Of a stretch of DNA of 64,000 nt, positions 3,430 through 19,075 are shown one piece after another. Within the stretch, counting starts at the first letter, position 1, and each line of letters opens with the position of its first letter. The stretch comes from a phage. The stretch lies in assembly GCA_027468165.1 (NCBI GenBank), contig GCA_027468165.1_3951.1; one strand, 5' to 3'. The notes below the pieces were generated by a model. The model was given only the letters and a program-made list of their open reading frames with translations, did no database searches and had not been told where the DNA came from. Both the position numbers and the translations under genes were made by a program.

Positions 3430-3642
3430 ACGTAAATGCTAGCCCCCTTAACATTTTCTTAACAATTTCTTAACAAACCCTACATAGTTATGTTTGTTAG
3501 TAACTTGTTAGCCCCTTGTTAAATCTCTGTTAAAACCATGTAAAAGCCTTGTAAGAACCTTTGGCATAGCCTTTAAAGCCCCTGAAAAGCCCTGTAAGGA
3601 GGTGTCTGTATAGTTGGGGTGTAATTACTAGGGAGAGACTAA

Positions 3643-3683
3643 AAAGGGCTTATAAGGAGCTATAAAGGGCTTTTAAAAGGGCT
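3643..3683. repeat. AAAGGGCT x3 at 22- and 11-bp spacing
   Basis: Read directly. Confidence 0.7.
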
Positions 3684-3779
3684 ATTTAAAAGGTCACTAG
3701 GGATTGGTAACAATACCAATTAAGAGGGAAAGGGAACGATAAGACCAGAGATAGTGACCATGTTAATAGCTTGTTAAAA

Positions 3780-6046: not shown

Positions 6047-6580
6047 CTATAATTGTAGGTTGCATTCTTTACTTACCTCTTCAAGTTTAACCTCAGAGTC
6101 CTTAAGTCGTTTCTTATGAACTCTGAATCTCATTAGTGCGATGATGATACCAACTAAAGGGACAGCATACAAGTACCAAACATCATATACCTTTGCAGTA
6201 ATCTGTGTAATGGTTAAGTCTTGAGCTATGGAACTGATTGCTGATACTGCCAGTAATGTTGCTAGGAAAAATGCCAGTACCATGACAATACTTAGACAAC
6301 CTCTGGCACGGTGTTCATGCTTAATGCACTTATTCTTTTCGTCAACAACCCTGTTGTAGTCATTTGTAAAGTCTCTGTAGAAGGCTTTCAAGTATTCTTG
6401 ACTGTAGCCTTCAAAGCAACCTGTACCGTACCAATAATCACCACCAAAGTGTGCTATGATACCGGTATCTCCATTTGGTTTGGTTACTCTTAAAGAGACG
6501 TGATGACCAGTCTTCTGGTAATCTATCTTATATCTTTCTTCGTAAATCATTTTCCAACCCCTCTCAATCGTTTGTTCCAC
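6047..6580 (-). CDS. Membrane protein, two predicted C-terminal TM helices (177 aa)
   Basis: Hydrophobic segments LSIVMVLAFFLATLLAVSAI and YLYAVPLVGIIIALM. Confidence 0.5.
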   Translation of the reverse strand: MEQTIERGWKMIYEERYKIDYQKTGHHVSLRVTKPNGDTGIIAHFGGDYWYGTGCFEGYSQEYLKAFYRDFTNDYNRVVDEKNKCIKHEHRARGCLSIVMVLAFFLATLLAVSAISSIAQDLTITQITAKVYDVWYLYAVPLVGIIIALMRFRVHKKRLKDSEVKLEEVSKECNLQL

Positions 6581-6848: not shown

Positions 6849-7430
6849 TCAAGAGTATTTTTTAGGCAGTAATGCGCTACGTTTGTTACTCTCTTCACTC
6901 AACAGTGCGATGAAGTCATCACCTTTGCCTTTCCACGGGCTGAATGAAGGGATATGCTCACGGATGGCTTCAATCACCGTCTTAAGTGCTGTATTTTTCA
7001 TCCACCAATCAGAATCTGCTGATGCCACTACGTAGTATCCACCTTCATCAGTCAGAATTGGCTCTGAGATACATGGTGAAATCAGAGTGGTGATGATTGA
7101 GCCATTGTTCATATAGTATGTGCGCTTCATAACCTTTTCAAGAAGCTTGTGAAGGTCACCAAACAGTGTTACAAGCTCTTTATGGTCAATGTCTTTTTCA
7201 AGATTGGCTCGATACTTCAAAAGTGCAGCATCAACTTCTCTGTCATTAAACTTGAAGTACTGGACTTCCTCAACAAGACAAACACTGATGTTGTTAACAT
7301 TCATAGTCAACTTGCAAACTTTTGCAGGAGAATTGATATTTGGTTGAAAAAGTGCAATACACCCTTCAATGTTTCCAAAATGTTGTACTAATGTCACTTG
7401 TGGAGTGATACTCTGTTGCTCTTCGGACAT
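6849..7430 (-). CDS. Hypothetical protein (193 aa)
   Basis: ORF track. Confidence 0.5.
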   Translation of the reverse strand: MSEEQQSITPQVTLVQHFGNIEGCIALFQPNINSPAKVCKLTMNVNNISVCLVEEVQYFKFNDREVDAALLKYRANLEKDIDHKELVTLFGDLHKLLEKVMKRTYYMNNGSIITTLISPCISEPILTDEGGYYVVASADSDWWMKNTALKTVIEAIREHIPSFSPWKGKGDDFIALLSEESNKRSALLPKKYS

Positions 7431-7774
7431 TACAGTTTCCTCATTAAATACTTTTTAAGTTGTGTGTTAGGCTTCTCAAAAACTTCTATAGAAGATATCT
7501 TAACAGATTCACCACGCATACCTGTATGTTTGAATATATAGTACTCTAACATACCTATATACTTTGCTGGTAAGTCATGCTTGACATACACCGTTACAGA
7601 ATCTTCAAATTCAACAACCTTTGTACCATCTTTGTAGTTAAACTCTTTAGGATGGTCGTATTTGTCGATGTCGTACATTAAAAAGAGTCTTTTCCGTTGC
7701 ATATCAAGCTTATTGGTTAAAGACTCTTTGATATCTGAGAAGTTTTTGTACACTGTGACATGGAGCTTACTCAT
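7430..7774 (-). CDS. Hypothetical protein (114 aa)
   Basis: ORF track; start/stop overlap with neighbours. Confidence 0.5.
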   Translation of the reverse strand: MSKLHVTVYKNFSDIKESLTNKLDMQRKRLFLMYDIDKYDHPKEFNYKDGTKVVEFEDSVTVYVKHDLPAKYIGMLEYYIFKHTGMRGESVKISSIEVFEKPNTQLKKYLMRKL

Positions 7775-8060
7775 CGTTAAACTCTCTGACGAAGAAATAG
7801 TTGACTTTGTTATTCCCTACCATAAGGTCAAAGCAGGTGTTCTCAAAAGGTTTGTTGTAGGCATCATATGAGGTGTATGTATCAGCTACTTGTTTAGTGT
7901 TGAGCTTTTTACTTGATGGATTTAAGAGGCCACCATACAGTTTCTTGATAGCCTCTTCTACAACAGACCAGATAATTTCGTCAGTAATTTCTTCGTACAG
8001 GTCAAGTTCACGCTCTAGTGAGAAGTCACAAATTGGGAAAATAACCTGTACTTTACTCAT
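7767..8060 (-). CDS. Hypothetical protein (97 aa)
   Basis: ORF track. Confidence 0.5.
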   Translation of the reverse strand: MSKVQVIFPICDFSLERELDLYEEITDEIIWSVVEEAIKKLYGGLLNPSSKKLNTKQVADTYTSYDAYNKPFENTCFDLMVGNNKVNYFFVREFNDE

Positions 8061-8455
8061 TAACGAATGACCTGTGTTACCTGAATAGCTTCAGTTACTG
8101 ACAAATCACCAACCGTTTCTTCTTTGACGAAGGTGAAGGTCAGTTCAATAGGCTCTTGCTCTTCTTGCTCAACAGGAACACCATTAAGCTCATCAAAGAT
8201 TGATTGAGTTGTCCAGTCTTCTCCACCATCTGGGTAGTGGATTGCGTAAAGTGGAAACTCTAAATTATACCAAGCAAAAACAGGGCAACCATCTGCATCA
8301 TCTCGGCATCTGTGAAGGCATGTGTTTGTACCTTCAAAATGCAAATGGAGATTACCATTCTCCTCAAAGATGAGAGCATCTTGCAGGTCTAGTTCCTCAT
8401 TTTCGCTGTAACGGCTGACATCGACTTTAACGTGAATATGACTGTTATTATTCAT
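8060..8455 (-). CDS. Hypothetical acidic protein (131 aa)
   Basis: ORF track. Confidence 0.5.
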   Translation of the reverse strand: MNNNSHIHVKVDVSRYSENEELDLQDALIFEENGNLHLHFEGTNTCLHRCRDDADGCPVFAWYNLEFPLYAIHYPDGGEDWTTQSIFDELNGVPVEQEEQEPIELTFTFVKEETVGDLSVTEAIQVTQVIR

Positions 8456-12324: not shown

Positions 12325-13740
12325 ATGAGCGAGTTATTTAAACATGCGCACCTTCATACAGGTCGAACTGAAAATGGTGCTGTAAACCATACTTCATCAA
12401 TGTCTGCTCTGGTAGACTTCTACAAAGCCGCTGGCTCAAGCCGTAGCAATGTAGAAATCTTACCAGACCTGTTCTACAAAGCTTTGCGTGAGGATGTTGA
12501 TGTTGCAGTTCGTATTTTACTGCATATGCGAGATGTACGAGAAGGTATGGGCGAGCGTAAAGCTTTCCGAACTGTTTTACTTCAAGCAATTGAAGATAAG
12601 GTTTTAGAGCCTACACAGGTTCTTCGCATCATGGATAAGATTGCAGAACTTGGTCGTTTTGATGACTTCAAAATCTTCGTAGGTACTCGTTTTGAGACAG
12701 ATTCCTTCAAACATTTAGAAGCAGCATTACTAGACCCTGCAACAGCAGGTTTAGCAGCTAAGTGGTTGCCACGAGTAAAACCACGCCACAAACAGTTTGT
12801 AAAACGTTTCTGTAAGTTTGCAAACTTGAGTGAGAAGGAGTATCGCACACTGTTATCTGCACTGTCTGATACGGTTGAGCAAAAAATCTCTGCTAATGAT
12901 TTTGGTAAGATTGACTACAGCAAGATTCCTTCACTCGCTGCTGCACGTTACCAAAAGCTCTTTAACCGTAAAGATGGGGAACGTTACAAAGCTTATATCG
13001 AGTCACTCTCAAAAGGTGAGGCTAAGATTAACGCTGGTGCTGTTTACCCATACGATGTGATTAAATCTATTAAGTATGGTAATGCAGATGTTGCTAATGA
13101 GCAGTGGAAAGCACTTCCAAACTGGATGGCAGAAGGTGAAAACATCTTGTGTATGACTGATGTCTCAAGCTCAATGTCTTGGGTGAATCTTGGTTCAATC
13201 ACTGCCCTTGATATTGGTGTATCCCTTGCCTTGTATGTAGCAGAACGCAATACAGGTTGCTTTAAAGATGAGTTAATGGTCTATTCAACAAACCCTCATT
13301 TCATTGAACTGAGTGGTGATTTACGAAACCGTCATCGTCAGGTGATGCGACATGTTGAATATGGTTCAACTAACTTACAAGCAGCTTTTGACCGCATTCT
13401 TGAGGTAGGTAAGCGAAACAAATTGACTCAGAAAGATATGCCAAGTAAGCTTATCATCTTCTCTGATATGGAGTTTAATCAGGTTGATGGTGCAAATGGT
13501 CGTACAAACTTTGAAGCAATTCAGAGTAAGTACAAAAAAGCTGGATATGAGATGCCACAACTAGTATTCTGGTACTTAGCAAACCGTAATGGTACTTGCG
13601 AAGTGTCTGTTAAGGATAATGGTGTAGCAATGGTATCAGGGTTCTCTCCAGCCACTTTAAAAGCTCTGCTTGGTGGTGAGAAGTTTGACCCAATCAGCGT
13701 AATGCTCAAAGCAGTAATGATTGACCGTTACATCTGGTAA
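12325..13740 (+). CDS. von Willebrand factor A (vWA) domain protein with MIDAS motif; N-terminal ~270 aa unassigned (possibly TROVE-like)
   Basis: DxSxS motif (CMTDVSSSMS) followed by a vWA-like beta strand (KLIIFSDMEF); strong SD; sits immediately upstream of the tRNA array. Confidence 0.65.
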   Translation: MSELFKHAHLHTGRTENGAVNHTSSMSALVDFYKAAGSSRSNVEILPDLFYKALREDVDVAVRILLHMRDVREGMGERKAFRTVLLQAIEDKVLEPTQVLRIMDKIAELGRFDDFKIFVGTRFETDSFKHLEAALLDPATAGLAAKWLPRVKPRHKQFVKRFCKFANLSEKEYRTLLSALSDTVEQKISANDFGKIDYSKIPSLAAARYQKLFNRKDGERYKAYIESLSKGEAKINAGAVYPYDVIKSIKYGNADVANEQWKALPNWMAEGENILCMTDVSSSMSWVNLGSITALDIGVSLALYVAERNTGCFKDELMVYSTNPHFIELSGDLRNRHRQVMRHVEYGSTNLQAAFDRILEVGKRNKLTQKDMPSKLIIFSDMEFNQVDGANGRTNFEAIQSKYKKAGYEMPQLVFWYLANRNGTCEVSVKDNGVAMVSGFSPATLKALLGGEKFDPISVMLKAVMIDRYIW

Positions 13741-13752
13741 AAAGTTTTAAAA

Positions 13753-13787
13753 AGGGTATTGACAATGTGTTTGATACCCTTTAATAT
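13753..13787 (+). promoter_or_regulatory. Putative promoter: A-tract, TTGACA 13759-13764, 17 bp, TAATAT 13782-13787
   Basis: Near-consensus sigma70 elements; likely drives the tRNA array. Confidence 0.55.
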
Positions 13788-13842: not shown

Positions 13843-13878
13843 AAGTTCTTGACAACCACTAAAAAATAATGTTAAAGT
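13843..13878 (+). promoter_or_regulatory. Putative promoter: A-tract, TTGACA 13849-13854, 18 bp, TAAAGT 13873-13878, inverted repeat AACCACT/AGTGGTT
   Basis: Read directly. Confidence 0.5.
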
Positions 13879-13904: not shown

Positions 13905-13981
13905 CTCTGTTTAGCTCAGCTTGGTAGAGCGTTCCGTTTGGGGCGGTAAGGCCGGAGGTTCAAGTCCTCCAACAGAGACCA
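13905..13981 (+). tRNA. tRNA-Pro (anticodon UGG)
   Basis: Manual fold: acceptor CTCTGTT/AACAGAG, D-arm GCTCAGCTTGGTAGAGC, anticodon loop TTTGGGG, T-arm GGAGG-TTCAAGT-CCTCC, CCA encoded. Confidence 0.7.
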
Positions 13982-13988
13982 AATTAAT

Positions 13989-14066
13989 GTTCCAGTAGAC
14001 AAAATGGTATAGTCACCACTCTTTCAAAGTGGATATTTGAGGGTTCAAATCCCTTCTGGAACGCCA
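13989..14066 (+). tRNA. tRNA-Glu (anticodon UUC)
   Basis: Acceptor GTTCCAG/CTGGAAC, anticodon stem-loop CCACT-CTTTCAA-AGTGG, T-loop TTCAAAT, CCA encoded. Confidence 0.75.
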
Positions 14067-14073
14067 GTTTTGA

Positions 14074-14146
14074 CAGAAGACCAATTGCAGCAAACTTAAT
14101 CTTATTCATCTGACACGAAATCGGACAAAGAAGAGATTTGGTCTGG
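14074..14146 (+). repeat. tRNA-spacer element E1 (5' CAGAAGACC ... 3' GGTCTGG)
   Basis: Conserved termini able to pair (AGACC/GGTCT); starts 8 nt after tRNA-Glu and ends 12 nt before the next tRNA. Confidence 0.5.
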
Positions 14147-14157
14147 TCATTAAGAAT

Positions 14158-14234
14158 TGCGGGTATAGAGAAAGGGCGTCTCACATGTCTCATTAGCATG
14201 GTATCGGCAGGTTCGACTCCTGCACCCGCCTCCA
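14158..14234 (+). tRNA. tRNA-Met (anticodon CAU), initiator-like
   Basis: Anticodon stem-loop CATGT-CTCATTA-GCATG, T-arm GCAGG-TTCGACT-CCTGC, acceptor with unpaired 1:72 position; D-arm atypical. Confidence 0.55.
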
Positions 14235-14240
14235 ATTTTG

Positions 14241-14300
14241 CAGAAGACCGTATGCAGCAATAAACTACTTTTTGCGGATAAAAGAAAAAACACGGTCTGG
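14241..14300 (+). repeat. tRNA-spacer element E2 (CAGAAGACC ... GGTCTGG)
   Basis: Same terminal motifs and same placement relative to flanking tRNAs as E1. Confidence 0.5.
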
Positions 14301-14311
14301 CAATGTATTAA

Positions 14312-14385
14312 GGTTAGGAAGCACATAAGGTATGTGCGGTCGCCTGTTAAGCGAATGGCACAGGGTTCGAATCCCTGACTAACCG
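14312..14385 (+). tRNA. tRNA-Asn (anticodon GUU)
   Basis: Acceptor GGTTAGG/ACTAACC, D-stem GCAC/GTGC, anticodon loop CTGTTAA, T-arm CAGGG-TTCGAAT-CCCTG. Confidence 0.65.
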
Positions 14386-14396
14386 CAAATTTAAAT

Positions 14397-14484
14397 GTGT
14401 CGTTATCCCGTAGATGGTAGCGGTGGGGACTGTAAATCCCTTGTCATTGAGACTCGGTAGGTTCGACTCCTACACGGCACACCA
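14397..14484 (+). tRNA. tRNA-Tyr (anticodon GUA), long variable arm
   Basis: Acceptor GTGTCGT/ACGGCAC, anticodon loop CTGTAAA, ~14-nt variable arm, T-arm GTAGG-TTCGACT-CCTAC, CCA encoded. Confidence 0.7.
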
Positions 14485-14545
14485 ATTTTGAGAGGGCTAT
14501 TTAGCCCCTCCCTTAAAGGGTTCTTACGAGTATCCTTTAAAGGAG

Positions 14546-14619
14546 CAGAAGACCAAATACAGCAAGTTACTTAAAATTTCAAGCTAATTTAATTTTGAAA
14601 AATTTAAAACTTGGTCTGG
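14546..14619 (+). repeat. tRNA-spacer element E3 (CAGAAGACC ... GGTCTGG)
   Basis: Same terminal motifs. Confidence 0.5.
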
Positions 14620-14632
14620 CTCAACAAATTTA

Positions 14633-14763
14633 CAGAAGACCGTTTACAGCAAAACTTAAACAATCTATTTCTCGGTAAAGAAAAGGCGAAGGTTCGATTC
14701 CTTCACTCGGCAGATGTCGAGTTGGTGTAATGGTAGCACTTAAGATGATAAACAACGGTCTGG
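14633..14763 (+). repeat. tRNA-spacer element E4 (CAGAAGACC ... GGTCTGG) enclosing a tRNA-like fragment
   Basis: Same terminal motifs; interior contains T-arm and acceptor-like hairpins. Confidence 0.5.
14688..14739 (+). other. tRNA-like fragment in permuted order (T-arm + 3' acceptor strand, then complementary 5' acceptor strand + D-arm); no anticodon arm
   Basis: GAAGG-TTCGATT-CCTTC then ACTCGGC, 4-nt gap, then GTCGAGT + TGGTGTAATGGTAGCAC; the two acceptor strands are complementary. Confidence 0.3.
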
Positions 14764-14866
14764 TAATTATCTTTGCAGTAGCTTATGTGGCTAATTATGT
14801 CGTCCCATGAGTGCCGATGAATTTCCTTAGCATGATTCTAGATTAGCTTAATAGGAAATGACTCTA

Positions 14867-14887
14867 CAGACCCTTTAGCAAGGTCTG
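14867..14887 (+). repeat. Minimal spacer element E5 (CAGACC-CTTTAGCAA-GGTCTG)
   Basis: Shares the AGACC/GGTCT closing stem and GCAA motif with E1-E4. Confidence 0.4.
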
Positions 14888-14914
14888 CGTAGGTTACTGC
14901 AAAGATAATTTAAT

Positions 14915-14990
14915 GGAAGTGTAGCAGAATGGTGATGCGGCAGACTTTTAATCTGACAGGCGACGGGTTCGAATCCCTCCACTTCTACCA
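14915..14990 (+). tRNA. tRNA-Lys (anticodon UUU)
   Basis: Acceptor GGAAGTG/CACTTCT, anticodon loop CTTTTAA, T-loop TTCGAAT, CCA encoded; T-stem weak. Confidence 0.6.
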
Positions 14991-14994
14991 ATAT

Positions 14995-15071
14995 GGTTCA
15001 GTCGCAGATAAGGTAATGCAAGGGTCTCATAAGCCCTATGAATGTGGGTTCGATTCCCATCTGAACCTCCA
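14995..15071 (+). tRNA. tRNA with anticodon CAU (elongator Met or Ile-lysidine)
   Basis: Acceptor GGTTCAG/CTGAACC, anticodon stem-loop AGGGT-CTCATAA-GCCCT, T-loop TTCGATT, CCA encoded. Confidence 0.65.
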
Positions 15072-15072
15072 A

Positions 15073-15148
15073 GCTGGTATAGTTAAGAAGGTTATAACAC
15101 TCCCCTGATAAGGGAACATCGGTGGTTCGATTCCACCTACCAGTACCA
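15073..15148 (+). tRNA. tRNA-Ile (anticodon GAU)
   Basis: Acceptor GCTGGTA/TACCAGT, anticodon loop CTGATAA, T-arm GGTGG-TTCGATT-CCACC, CCA encoded. Confidence 0.7.
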
Positions 15149-15157
15149 ATTTCAATA

Positions 15158-15192
15158 AAGTTGTTGACATTGATATGTGACCACTTTATAGT
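15158..15192 (+). promoter_or_regulatory. Putative internal promoter: A-tract, TTGACA 15164-15169, 17 bp, TATAGT 15187-15192
   Basis: Near-consensus sigma70 elements. Confidence 0.5.
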
Positions 15193-15484
15193 AACTAAAA
15201 TACTTCATAATATGTATAATTCAAACACCAATACATGAGCGTTAGACGTAACACAATGTGGGGAAATTTGTTGTACATATTCTGAATAGTTTTCGTTGCG
15301 TAGCGTCTATTTTGCAAATTTAAAATAAATGCAAACGACAATGTTTTTCTGGCAGTAGCTTGATAGGCTAAACACCAGTGAGGTCTTCCAATCCCTCATC
15401 AAAGAATTTGGCGTACTCGCCCACGGTATGATTAATAAGGTGGGCATCTTTAAGGGTTTTTTAAGAGAGTCTTTAAAGATTAAT

Positions 15485-15576: not shown

Positions 15577-15918
15577 ATGAAGAACGGCTCTATAGGAGAA
15601 ATTGCAACTCAACTTGAGTTTATGAAGATGGGATATGAAATCTACTCACCAGCAACTGACAATGCTAGGTATGATTTTATAGCTCACAAAGACGGTAAAC
15701 TTTATAAAGTTGAAGTTAAATCCACCTCAAGGAAAGTTAGAGATGTATGGAAAGTGCAACTAAAGAGAGTTCATTCAAATAGAAGTTCAAACAGAATAGC
15801 TAACTTTGATAACACGTTAGTTGATTTCTTATCAGTTTATATTGAACCTCTTGAAAAGGTTATAATCCTTAAAGCTAAAGACGTTACTTCAAAAACTGAG
15901 TTAAGCTTAAGGGTTTAG
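15577..15918 (+). CDS. Small PD-(D/E)xK nuclease-like protein (113 aa) embedded in the tRNA array
   Basis: Motif D(FIA)...KVEVKS resembling the PD...(D/E)xK catalytic core; strong SD. Confidence 0.5.
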   Translation: MKNGSIGEIATQLEFMKMGYEIYSPATDNARYDFIAHKDGKLYKVEVKSTSRKVRDVWKVQLKRVHSNRSSNRIANFDNTLVDFLSVYIEPLEKVIILKAKDVTSKTELSLRV

Positions 15919-16210: not shown

Positions 16211-16465
16211 CCTAATAAGATTTAAAGCCAAGCTTCATTCGGATGTTGCTTTGGTATCCCTCGTGTATTGTCGTACACAAGTAAAGCACCTAGTAGGTGT
16301 CACGGAGAAGAGATAATATCAAGCTCTCCAAAGGTTCTAGTCACCGGATTAAACAAGACTATGCAAAGGCCTATTTAGGTCTTTTTAGAGGGCTTCTAAG
16401 GTTATTACAGCTTGTTGTGGAACCTTGTTGCTTAGGTTCTTAGAAGTTCTCTAAAAAGATTTAAT

Positions 16466-16873: not shown

Positions 16874-16968
16874 ATTCAGAGGTCAAGTGAAAGACCGCTG
16901 GTGTCAACTGAAGACCGTAACAAATTCCACGGAGTTGAGTTAGCGGCACAACTTCAGACCTCTTTCAT

Positions 16969-17331: not shown

Positions 17332-17889
17332 ATGAGATATTTGAAGTATGCTTCATGGATTTTCTTAGCTTTGTTAGAGCCATTTGCAGCAATCTTAGCA
17401 GTTATCTTAGCACCTTTCGTAGTTCCATTTTACAGTGAGAAGAAAGGACACTTACCTTTCGGCTTCAGATGGATGGAAACATACGACAACCCAATTGATG
17501 GTGATAAAGGTCATGTCGAACGGTGGGCTAAGATTAGAAAGATTGGTAAGCTCGGTGTCTACATGCAGAGAGTTGGATGGCTCTGGAGAAACAAAGCTTA
17601 TAACTTCTCTTACCATGTGTTAGGAAGAGATGTAAAAGATGTTACTAAGTGGAAAGGTAATATCAATGTAAGTTCTAACCCTGAAGATAATCAGACAGGT
17701 TATCTCCTAATGTGGAACAGTAATGCTTGGGGGTTATTCGCTTTTATCCCATCAATTAAAGTCTTTGGTAAACAATTCTACTGGAGAATTTATGTTGGGT
17801 GGAAACTTAAAAGTGTTGTCCCAGAAGAAAGAGCATTCTCAAGGGAAAGAGTTATGTTGGCATTCTTTATTCATCCACTGAGAAAGTAA
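17332..17889 (+). CDS. Membrane protein with hydrophobic N-terminus (185 aa) embedded in the tRNA array
   Basis: ORF track; N-terminal segment WIFLALLEPFAAILAVILAPFVVPF; ATG 20 nt after tRNA-Arg. Confidence 0.5.
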   Translation: MRYLKYASWIFLALLEPFAAILAVILAPFVVPFYSEKKGHLPFGFRWMETYDNPIDGDKGHVERWAKIRKIGKLGVYMQRVGWLWRNKAYNFSYHVLGRDVKDVTKWKGNINVSSNPEDNQTGYLLMWNSNAWGLFAFIPSIKVFGKQFYWRIYVGWKLKSVVPEERAFSRERVMLAFFIHPLRK

Positions 17890-18247: not shown

Positions 18248-18324
18248 TAGTCCAAGTAGCTTATATGGTTAAAGCGCGTGTCTGAAAAACATGAGAAGAG
18301 GGTTCAAATCCCACTGGACTACCA
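18248..18324 (+). tRNA. tRNA-Phe (anticodon GAA); ends uncertain
   Basis: D-stem GCTT/AAGC, anticodon stem-loop CGTGT-CTGAAAA-ACATG, T-loop TTCAAAT; acceptor pairing admits two registers. Confidence 0.55.
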
Positions 18325-18340
18325 ATTTCAAAGGTGCTTA

Positions 18341-19075
18341 ATGAAAGAGATGACAGAACAAGGTAAGGAGATTTTTAATCTCTTAAAAACTGGTAGAGGG
18401 TTTTCTAATCCCCTTATTACTGGTGCAGCAGTTCTCGGTGGAACCGTAGCTGCCTCTACATCACTTGTAAGCTCTATTAGCTCTGTAACAGACCCTACAA
18501 TAAAGGATAAACTTGTTGCGGCTGGACTTACAACAGTTCTGCTTAACAGCTTTACAACGAGTCTGACAAGCACTACATCAACCACTAAGACACTGACAGA
18601 TTACGGTCAAAAGTCCATTGATGAGTTTTCATCACGTATGCAGGTAGCAAAAGGATATTCCAATGTTATGGGTGCAGCAGGAGAACAAGTCGGTTGTACA
18701 CCATTTAGTGGTATTATGGGTGTTGCTACAGAGTACGGTCAAAAAGCTATTGACACAATTAACAGTACACTAGATGGTGTTAATGATGTATTAAGTGACT
18801 TACAAGATGCTATTGATAAAGGTCTTGATACTGTTTCTGATTTAGCTAATCAGGCTGTTAGTAAGATTAATGAAGGTATTTCGAAGATTACAGCTTATGC
18901 AAATGAAGTTGTGCAGATGATTGAAGAAGAAGCTGCCCTTATTGCAGAGTACCTTAAAACGAATATCAATGGGTTCTTAGCAGGTATCTTACCAGACTGG
19001 TTTGATGATGCTTGTAAAACTGGTGTGATTGACACTATTGCAACACCAGAAATGAAGAGCGCATTACAGAAATAA
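18341..19075 (+). CDS. Hypothetical Ser/Thr-rich protein (245 aa from the ATG at 18341)
   Basis: ORF-track frame trimmed to the first ATG downstream of tRNA-Phe (MKEMTEQ...). Confidence 0.5.
   Translation: MKEMTEQGKEIFNLLKTGRGFSNPLITGAAVLGGTVAASTSLVSSISSVTDPTIKDKLVAAGLTTVLLNSFTTSLTSTTSTTKTLTDYGQKSIDEFSSRMQVAKGYSNVMGAAGEQVGCTPFSGIMGVATEYGQKAIDTINSTLDGVNDVLSDLQDAIDKGLDTVSDLANQAVSKINEGISKITAYANEVVQMIEEEAALIAEYLKTNINGFLAGILPDWFDDACKTGVIDTIATPEMKSALQK

Follow-up and report, generated by a model that had tools for sequence, protein, structure and literature searches.

Probable Y-RNA-type small RNA genes between the tRNA genes of a Felix-O1-like phage, downstream of a gene for a Ro60-like protein

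Introduction

What are the recurrent elements that lie between several tRNA genes of one Felix-O1-like phage, and why do their ends stay alike while their interiors differ? The question is raised by positions 14,074 to 14,887 of a phage DNA stretch of 64,000 nucleotides (nt) (NCBI GenBank assembly GCA_027468165.1, contig GCA_027468165.1_3951.1), which as a whole is called the window here; the region is 94–96% identical to Felix-O1-like phages (Ounavirinae, Felixounavirus). Its tRNA cluster holds 25 tRNA genes, and most of the junctions between them measure 1–10 nt and contain no such element. An earlier note on this DNA had described four elements with conserved, pairing termini and one minimal copy, and had suggested processing cassettes, small structured RNAs or miniature mobile insertions.

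In this study, we find that the four elements are a sequence family with covarying structure at the RNA level, that they are homologous to RNAs of distant phages and that those RNAs are found on the same strand as, and close to, homologs of one upstream gene. We consider it probable, at roughly 0.7, that the elements are genes for small non-coding RNAs of the Y RNA type, element 4 being similar to bacterial YrlA and elements 1–3 being short forms, and that they are linked to the upstream gene for a Ro60-like protein. The pairing of gene and RNAs recurs in very diverse phages, where it is likewise unannotated. The earlier interpretation is partly upheld; the permuted tRNA-like interior of element 4 and the upstream gene had not been part of it.

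Results

Four elements with a common closing module

The motif AGACCNNNTRCAGCAA occurs four times in the window against 0.01 expected from shuffles, each time on the plus strand and between 14078 and 14652. Exact CAGAAGACC occurs five times in the 64 kb, four of these at the elements, and no copies of the elements were found elsewhere in the window. The four elements with conserved termini (14074–14146, 14241–14300, 14546–14619 and 14633–14763) are where they had been described, with the correction that the true units are slightly larger, each being bounded by a 4-bp outer stem (Table 1).

When folded with a few flanking bases, all four copies adopt a common fold consisting of the outer stem, an internal loop (5' AGA, 3' G), a closing stem of 7–8 bp, a single-stranded U-R-CAGCAA and a variable interior. 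The AGACC and GGTCT cores pair as proposed earlier, and the helix is extended to its full length by bases that differ between copies, so that the closing stem reads AGACCNN/NNGGUCU with inner pairs that vary compensatorily (AGACCAA/TTGGTCT, AGACCGT/ACGGTCT and AGACCGTT/AACGGTCT). The outer stems also vary compensatorily from one copy to another. In relatives, the stems show G-U variants as well as changes on both sides, for example UUGC/GCAA to UUAC/GUAA in the outer stem of element 2 and the G-U variants GGGC/GCUC and GAGC/GUUC in that of element 3. G-U pairs are tolerated, and the opposite strand would have C-A mismatches at these positions. The positions of the elements are syntenic across Felixounavirus, Suspvirus and Mooglevirus. 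Elements 1–4 are a family of small structured RNAs with covariation, and one of the earlier suggestions is supported in this respect and can be sharpened to Y-RNA-like RNAs linked to the adjacent Ro60-like gene.

The interior is less constrained than the ends. In L007, SUSP2 and Mooglevirus the interior of element 1 is replaced by a different, unrelated hairpin and the closing module is unchanged; the interiors behave as exchangeable heads. The fixed register relative to the neighboring tRNAs that had been described earlier is seen in the two tRNA-flanked elements only, where 6–7 nt lie between the CCA and the start of the motif and 11 nt between its end and the following tRNA (3–4 nt and 8 nt, respectively, when counted from the outer stem), and it does not extend to the rest. 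Ribozyme cores (hammerhead, twister and similar) and a terminator, CRISPR or retron origin were also considered and rejected, as inspection by eye gave no supporting motifs and there are no terminator-like sites at the elements.

A rearranged tRNA-like domain in element 4

Only element 4 carries a domain in which the arms of a tRNA follow one another in the order variable arm, T-arm, acceptor-like hairpin and D-arm; elements 1–3 are without it. The sequence shows A14, R15, G18, G19, A21 and the GTTCGATTC T-loop. ARAGORN made no call on the native order and called a tRNA with exactly these arms once the halves were swapped, and the Rfam tRNA model matched the T-arm only. In eight Ounavirinae, pairing holds for 97% of the cells of the structure. 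The acceptor-like helix, with three pairs changed on both sides, is rebuilt in relatives (ACUCGGC/GUCGAGU, ACACG/CGUGU and ACCCUUC/GAAGGGU).

Functional circularly permuted tRNA genes exist in some algae and archaea, and in these the complete tRNA including its anticodon loop is recovered after circularisation and processing. We rejected the possibility that element 4 is such a gene: the closing module takes the place of the anticodon loop, the sequence does not encode a CCA, and a 4-nt loop caps the acceptor stem. The order of variable arm, T-arm, acceptor hairpin and D-arm is that described for the bacterial YrlA Y RNAs (PMC4201824).

A gene for a Ro60-like protein upstream of the elements

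The open reading frame (ORF) at 12325–13740 ends 331 nt before element 1. In Pfam, its protein is matched by DUF2828 and DUF7788 only. An AlphaFold model built from 40 homologs is confident (predicted local distance difference test, pLDDT, 87.6; predicted template modelling score, pTM, 0.88) and has a helical-repeat ring followed by a vWA domain with a MIDAS (metal ion-dependent adhesion site) motif, as Ro60/TROVE proteins do; the MIDAS residues are invariant across the family. In a Foldseek comparison with the PDB, the ten best matches were all Ro60/TROVE proteins, aligned over the full length (best E 1.6e-7, TM 0.66), and the fold as modelled is that of Ro60. A search of the PDB sequences with the single protein sequence gave no Ro60 match, and a literature search on DUF2828 returned nothing useful.

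The protein is an ortholog of bas63_0130 (Bas63 gp130). A 2024 preprint on Bas63 reports that the structure of gp130 resembles Ro60 and that gp130 counters the ppl defence, and its authors only guessed that some annotated tRNA genes are the Y RNAs of gp130. With tblastn, homologs were found in 710 of 50,697 phage records, including mycobacteriophages (where they are annotated as 'Ro-like RNA binding protein') and phages of Listeria, Staphylococcus, Campylobacter, Vibrio, Enterococcus and Bacillus.

The CAGCAA module beside homologous genes in distant phages

The distant set comprised 75 viral contigs that encode homologs 38–47% identical to the window protein. Many of these loci contain, near the gene, an 'orphan' T-arm followed by an acceptor-like hairpin and a D-arm, and these distant tRNA-like RNAs, once extracted, all start and end with a module like that of the window elements. 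A first, rigid descriptor, with the stem fixed at 7 bp and a spacer of 2 nt, did not outperform shuffles (29 matches vs 19–25) and was replaced. The final descriptor asks for A or any other base on the 5' side, then a stem of 7 bp or more, a spacer of 3–4 nt, C[ACU]GCA[AGU], a gap of 15–200 nt, the partner strand and a G; it also catches modules, such as those of Listeria phage A511, that had been missed because the flanking G was taken up by a G-U extension of the stem.

Within 700 nt of the gene, this descriptor gave 97 matches on the gene's strand, distributed over 56 of the 75 loci, against 2 on the opposite strand and 4–10 in block shuffles. A stricter scan gave 55, 1 and 1–5, respectively, with 34 of the modules downstream of the gene and 21 upstream. 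Two or more tandem copies are present in 36 loci, often two or three, and the arrays comprise 2–5 modules with different interiors. Many modules are short (56 of 114 matches at 75 nt or less), and most have no tRNA-like interior.

Taken by itself, the 5' half-motif was seen 65 times on the gene's strand against twice on the other, and 44 of the 65 are completed by a full 7-bp partner and then G, with 28 distinct stem sequences among them. Reversed stems reached 7/7 in 15 of 65 cases, a weak control because G-U pairs were allowed freely, and we relied on the strand asymmetry and the following G instead. The consensus of 123 unique modules is (A/U)A, then A-G-R-W-U-N-N, N-U-W and C-A-G-C-A-A on the 5' side, and N-N-A-W-Y-C-U followed by G on the 3' side; the AGACC stem of the Ounavirinae is a lineage variant of it. 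Of the loci with a module, 38 lack any tRNA gene across about 9 kb, so that it is the gene, and not tRNAs, to which the module is tied. In the reverse direction, a scan of IMG/VR with the half-motif TAAAGGATNNNTWCAGCAA returned 125 instances, 64 of them with a 3' partner. The gene was present in the examined locus for 31 of these 64 full modules, always on the same strand, and for 3 of the 61 instances without a partner.

Two well-known phages illustrate the arrangement, both without tRNAs between the copies. In Mycobacterium phage Lumos, the protein has DUF2828 and DUF7788 and is annotated as a 'Ro-like RNA binding protein', and three tandem modules are found downstream of its gene (Table 1). 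The middle one is tRNA-like and is matched by the Rfam YrlA model at 39.3 bits (E 6.8e-6; threshold 69). In A511, a promoter and then three tandem modules precede the homolog, and an RtcB-type ligase is encoded 1.3 kb downstream of it. At this locus (L090 507–1058, 4851–5497), the Ro60-like gene and its modules lie between a ROOL-like large RNA (87.5 bits, just under the gathering score of 99) and the gene of the RtcB 'tRNA splicing ligase', and Rfam places a tRNA call at 1347–1417, within an annotated coding sequence.

Covariance model and covariation

An alignment of the distant tRNA-like RNAs with MAFFT was poor in the acceptor and D regions; hence, a covariance model (R1) was built from eight Ounavirinae copies of element 4 only, and the remaining sequences were aligned to it with Infernal. 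R1 found full-length matches in distant loci, all on the gene's strand (L031, with E 1.8e-11, and L050, L034, L026, L011, L030, L025, L016, L032, L019, L010 and L008), and matched the middle module of Lumos at E 2.4e-6. In the window it reaches elements 1 (33 bits, E 2e-4) and 2 (40 bits, E 5e-6) through the closing module, and element 3 was not reported at E ≤ 10.

In the model-fitted alignment of 24 sequences, 92.4% of the cells pair, compared with about 40% when the partners are slid, and 33 of 37 pairs are changed on both sides. The closing stem, for which covariation had been named as one check, is paired throughout (100%), and each of its seven positions shows double changes. The covariation is strong. 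Rfam searches of the tRNA region (6 kb, E ≤ 1) and of the elements (856 nt, E ≤ 10) returned tRNA, transfer-messenger RNA (tmRNA) and chance matches only, with no YrlA or Y_RNA, and those of 14 distant loci at the gathering threshold likewise gave tRNA, tmRNA and chance matches only.

Transcription context and other features of the tRNA cluster

Two promoter-like sites lie upstream of tRNA-Pro, the first tRNA, and no terminator-like site was found at 13905–15148; the next promoter-like site is at 15164. Judging from these sites, a single transcript probably runs from tRNA-Pro to tRNA-Ile and includes all elements, which would therefore be part of one tRNA precursor.

The 'minimal copy' at 14867–14887 is a real hairpin, CAGACC-CUUUAGCAA-GGUCUG, with a compensatory change from CAGACC/GGTCTG to CAAACC/GGTTTG in relatives. 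Its membership in the family is only partial: the loop reads CUU-UAGCAA rather than CAGCAA, so that it shares only the AGCAA-containing loop, and it sits within a separate RNA of 146 nt that shares 2 nt with the 3' outer stem of element 4. The long stem of this RNA exists as two sequence types, GCAGUAGC.../...GUUACUGC and GUAGAUAAG.../...CUUAUCUAC, both of which stay paired. It could represent a fifth small RNA of different construction, or else a processing stem of the RNase III type.

Long, near-perfect hairpins are also present at 15446–15480 and 16375–16464, directly upstream of tRNA-Arg and tRNA-Leu. Together with the stem at 14765–14910, they all end in ...AAAGAU(U/A)AAU(UUAAU)G just before a tRNA, an ending whose repetition suggests a recurring processing signal in the cluster. 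The spacer between tRNA-Thr and tRNA-Val (16878–16964) is structured (-30.7 kcal/mol, z -2.9) and contains CUGAAGACCGUAAC, which resembles the 5' end of the elements but is without CAGCAA. In the 336-nt gap after tRNA-Ile, Rfam gave weak matches at 15295–15484 to tmRNA (15 bits, E 0.006) and permuted tmRNA (20 bits) that are far under threshold and probably due to chance.

The composition of the cluster differs between relatives. A tRNA-Asp(GTC) gene with about 110 nt around it, located between tRNA-Tyr and element 3 in the close relatives CL1, Shy and Bas63, is missing in this phage (window 14484–14546 vs L001 1094–1171 and L002 1156–1233), and neither tRNA-Asp nor tRNA-Trp is among the 25 tRNAs of the window. 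In some relatives, about 62 additional nt are found between tRNA-Asn and tRNA-Tyr (L002 991–1056; L005 and L006 about 6075–6135), an insert that holds a T-arm-like hairpin, GUAAGG-UGCAAGU-CCUUAG, and has no ARAGORN tRNA call; it could be a tRNA remnant or another small RNA. A tRNA-like 3' half (...GCGGGUUCGAGUCCUGCCGCCUCGACCA), also without an ARAGORN call, is seen in L004 (about 7700–7780), L006 (about 7230–7310) and L007 (about 8110–8190) and may come from a tRNA split by an insertion such as an HNH endonuclease gene. Three protein genes lie inside the tRNA cluster of the window (15577–15918, 17332–17889 and 18278–19075), and they comprise a PD-(D/E)XK endonuclease (PDDEXK_5) and two DUF proteins (DUF7338, DUF7217). 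In deposited genomes, short minus-strand ORFs are annotated over elements 3 and 4 and the long-stem RNA (L088 2855–3129, which is bas63_0137 and bas63_0138 of Bas63, and similar 'hypothetical protein' calls elsewhere); these ORF calls are probably spurious.

Table 1. Positions of the candidate RNAs, their parts and associated features. Positions refer to the window except for the last row, which refers to the Lumos locus.
Feature	Position	Length	Strand	Remarks
Ro60-like protein gene (fold predicted)	12325–13740	471 aa	+	Helical-repeat ring and vWA domain; intact MIDAS D279-x-S281-x-S283
Promoter-like sites	13759–13787 and 13849–13878		+	Sigma-70-type, near-consensus, 10/12 matches each
Element 1	14071–14149	79 nt	+	Probable short Y-like RNA; outer stem UGAC/GUCA; closing stem AGACCAA/UUGGUCU; UUG-CAGCAA; interior hairpin
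Element 2	14238–14303	66 nt	+	Probable short Y-like RNA; outer stem UUGC/GCAA; closing stem AGACCGU/ACGGUCU; AUG-CAGCAA; hairpin with conserved CGGA-containing loop; fold z -2.4
Element 3	14543–14622	80 nt	+	Probable short Y-like RNA; outer stem GAGC/GCUC; closing stem AGACCAA/UUGGUCU; AUA-CAGCAA; A/U-rich hairpin; fold z -2.1
Element 4	14630–14766	137 nt	+	Probable YrlA-like RNA; outer stem UUAC/GUAA
Element 4, stem	14637–14644/14754–14761		+	
Element 4, CAGCAA	14647–14652		+	
Element 4, anticodon-stem-like helix	14655–14659/14740–14744		+	CUUAA/UUAAG
Element 4, variable-arm hairpin	14668–14683		+	
Element 4, T-arm	14688–14704		+	Canonical, GAAGG-UUCGAUU-CCUUC
Element 4, acceptor-like hairpin	14705–14722		+	7 bp, ACUCGGC-AGAU-GUCGAGU, loop AGAU
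Element 4, D-arm	14725–14739		+	GUGU-AAUGGUA-GCAC, preceded by U8 and G9
Long-stem structured RNA	14765–14910	146 nt	+	-54.8 kcal/mol, z -6.9; terminal stem about 23 bp
Lumos tandem modules	3461–3516, 3523–3652, 3664–3720			Downstream of the gene; each UGGACNN/3 nt/CAGCAA ... NNGUCCA/G

Discussion

The elements are encoded 331 nt from the gene for a protein that is Ro60-like by its fold and not by Pfam TROVE, and such a co-location is also seen in 56 of the 75 distant loci. Expression, processing, physical binding and a role in RNA surveillance or in anti-defence of the Bas63 type are what we infer for these RNAs, and the mechanism that we propose is as follows. The promoter-like sites at 13759 and 13849 would drive transcription of the elements along with the first tRNA operon, and RNase P and the 3'-end nucleases that excise the neighboring tRNAs would free the elements, their terminal stems shielding them from trimming. 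The closing module, which consists of the 5' A, AGACCNN/NNGGUCU, the 3-nt spacer, single-stranded CAGCAA and the 3' G together with a 4-bp clamp specific to the Ounavirinae, could serve as the docking site for the Ro60-like protein encoded upstream. The variable interior, which is a simple hairpin in elements 1–3 and mimics a tRNA in element 4, may give each RNA its own specificity and might function as tether, gate or decoy in the way known from Ro60-Y RNA particles.

Precedents for such a pairing exist. In Thermus phage phiLo, the phage Ro60 has been shown experimentally to bind two Y-like RNAs, Yrl1 and Yrl2, that are encoded beside its gene (PMC12135203), which provides a precedent for Y-type RNAs of a phage Ro60-like protein. 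The phiLo protein differs in being a recognisable TROVE protein, its RNAs carry a CGAA motif in a bulge, and neither a tRNA-like domain nor a tRNA-operon context has been reported for them (PMC12135203). The bacterial YrlA and YrlB RNAs of Salmonella and Mycobacterium (RF02553; Chen et al., 2014, PMC4201824) are, like the elements, encoded beside a Ro60-type gene, and their 5' and 3' ends join into a module that binds the protein and has, close to the 5' end, a short single-stranded motif that is conserved, binding being a prediction in the case of the elements. YrlA has the same order of variable region, T-arm, acceptor-like hairpin and D-arm in its interior as element 4, and YrlB is a shorter companion without the full tRNA-like domain, as are elements 1–3. 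At 7 bp, the acceptor-like stem of element 4 is as long as that of M. smegmatis YrlA. The arrangement of promoter, modules, gene and RtcB-type ligase in A511 also recalls the rsr-yrlBA-rtcBA operon of Salmonella.

The differences from YrlA are equally clear. The elements carry CAGCAA after a 3-nt spacer, whereas YrlA has GNCGAAN0-1G, the proposed Ro contact. Their closing helix is conserved on both strands, opens with an A-U and then a G-C pair and has a G on its 3' side, and their putative partner belongs to Pfam DUF2828/DUF7788 and not to TROVE. The Felixounavirus RNAs are not detected by the Rfam model, and even the Lumos relative stays below its threshold. Four to five copies are located inside a tRNA operon rather than in an rsr-rtc operon. 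Metazoan Y RNAs, which are bound by Ro60, are likewise modular, in that their terminal helix is conserved and serves Ro60 and their loop region varies and serves other partners, but they are unrelated in sequence, are products of RNA polymerase III and have no tRNA-like domain. Species 1 and 2 of the T4 tRNA cluster resemble the elements in another way, as they are stable non-tRNA RNAs that are co-transcribed and co-processed with phage tRNAs. We know of no link between them and a Ro60-like protein.

Several findings weigh against our reading. The protein is not in Pfam TROVE, its likeness to Ro60 is one of fold only, and the family profile reaches Ro60 among the PDB sequences only at E 0.83. 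The Rfam YrlA model has no match to the elements even at E ≤ 10 over 856 nt, and the YrlA/Ro motif GNCGAAN0-1G is absent from every element, (U)R-CAGCAA being conserved instead. For about half of the modules from the reverse search, the DNA examined does not contain the gene, though at least five of those contigs carry the gene farther off. The descriptor was derived from the same data on which it was used, a circularity that the strand, shuffle and reverse-search controls lessen but do not remove. The covariation alignment (A6) was fitted to the model and its figures lean towards the structure, while the strand and shuffle controls are independent of that. Finally, gp130 of Bas63 counters ppl on its own, from a plasmid or from T7, and the RNAs are thus not needed for that activity. 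This result, the missing GNCGAA motif and the negative YrlA search speak against the simple view of the RNAs as obligate partners of the protein.

The modules could instead be leader or trailer operators through which the Ro60-like protein regulates its own mRNA or neighboring transcripts, and not free RNAs acting in trans. That the distant modules of the strict scan abut the gene on either side fits untranslated regions, and binding of the protein to the module belongs to this model too. We nevertheless regard it as unlikely. Between the gene and the first module of this phage lie two promoter-like sites and two tRNAs, tandem arrays with differing interiors and a full tRNA-like domain suit independent RNAs better, and the most similar systems known (YrlA/YrlB and phiLo Yrl1/2) consist of free RNAs. 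Regulation of the gene's own mRNA in cis is possible in some phages and fits poorly in this one.

A second alternative is that the elements are spacers of the tRNA precursor that act in cis, pacing or guiding cleavage by RNase III, E or P or protecting intermediates, with no later life of their own. They do lie between tRNA genes, in one transcription unit and with short, regular gaps, and other long hairpins (14765–14910, 15446–15480 and 16375–16464) precede tRNAs of the same cluster. This explanation appears improbable, because the module is tied to the DUF2828 gene in distant loci where no tRNA gene is near, the A511 and Lumos arrays have no tRNAs between their copies, most tRNA junctions of the window manage with a few nucleotides and no such element, and a cleavage spacer needs neither a conserved single-stranded CAGCAA nor a complete tRNA-like domain. 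What survives of the earlier idea of processing cassettes is that the RNAs are probably freed from the tRNA precursor by tRNA nucleases; the 38 loci without a tRNA gene show that the module is not a tRNA-processing signal as such.

Equally improbable, in our view, is that the RNAs are real but independent of the Ro60-like protein, for instance as tRNA-mimic decoys for host anticodon nucleases or other tRNA-directed defences or as partners of another protein, so that linkage to the gene reflects a shared pathway only. The activity of gp130 without the RNAs, the tRNA mimicry of element 4 and the position of the RNAs among phage tRNAs are in line with this. However, the part that is conserved across hundreds of loci is the closing module and not the tRNA-like part, which most modules do not have. 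Tight adjacency on the same strand to one gene family, in phages of Gram-negative, Gram-positive and actinobacterial hosts, is the usual signature of a cognate RNA and protein. Miniature inverted-repeat mobile DNA inserted between tRNA genes, to which the short inverted termini, the variable interiors and several copies close together had pointed, can be dismissed with near certainty, given elements on one strand only with no copies elsewhere in the 64 kb, syntenic positions in three Ounavirinae genera, tolerated G-U pairs, flanks that form covarying 4-bp stems in place of target-site duplications, and interiors that hold conserved RNA structure.

A wider proposal can be made, which we put forward tentatively and as rather less likely than not. 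The Ro60-like proteins with DUF2828/DUF7788, found in at least 710 of 50,697 deposited phage genomes with hosts among Proteobacteria, Firmicutes and Actinobacteria, might each come with a dedicated array of CAGCAA-module RNAs and form a widespread, unannotated phage ribonucleoprotein, whose variable RNA heads, tRNA mimics included, would direct or gate the protein during infection. Its roles could include countering defences of the host, ppl or tRNA-targeting nucleases for example, or recruiting host exonucleases. The elements of the window would then be the cognate RNAs that the Bas63 study sought among annotated tRNA genes.

That Y RNAs are encoded beside Ro60 genes, also in phages, is already known. 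Set against the surveyed literature and Rfam 15, four points appear to be new: the identification of these Felixounavirus RNAs, the CAGCAA closing module as a common signature, the pairing of this module, in hundreds of phages, with Ro60-like proteins of the DUF2828/DUF7788 branch, and its multiplication inside a tRNA operon. An annotation correction would follow, as several records carry probably spurious ORFs over these RNAs.

It is important to understand what Ro60-Y RNA particles do, since they are conserved from bacteria to humans and their roles are hazy beyond a few model species. This analysis provides candidate RNAs with exact coordinates between tRNA genes and a simple conserved module that can be mutated. 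The same pairing of gene and RNA is found in many unrelated phages, including the well-studied Listeria phage A511 and mycobacteriophages. The question of what phage Ro60-like proteins and their RNAs do thus becomes directly testable.

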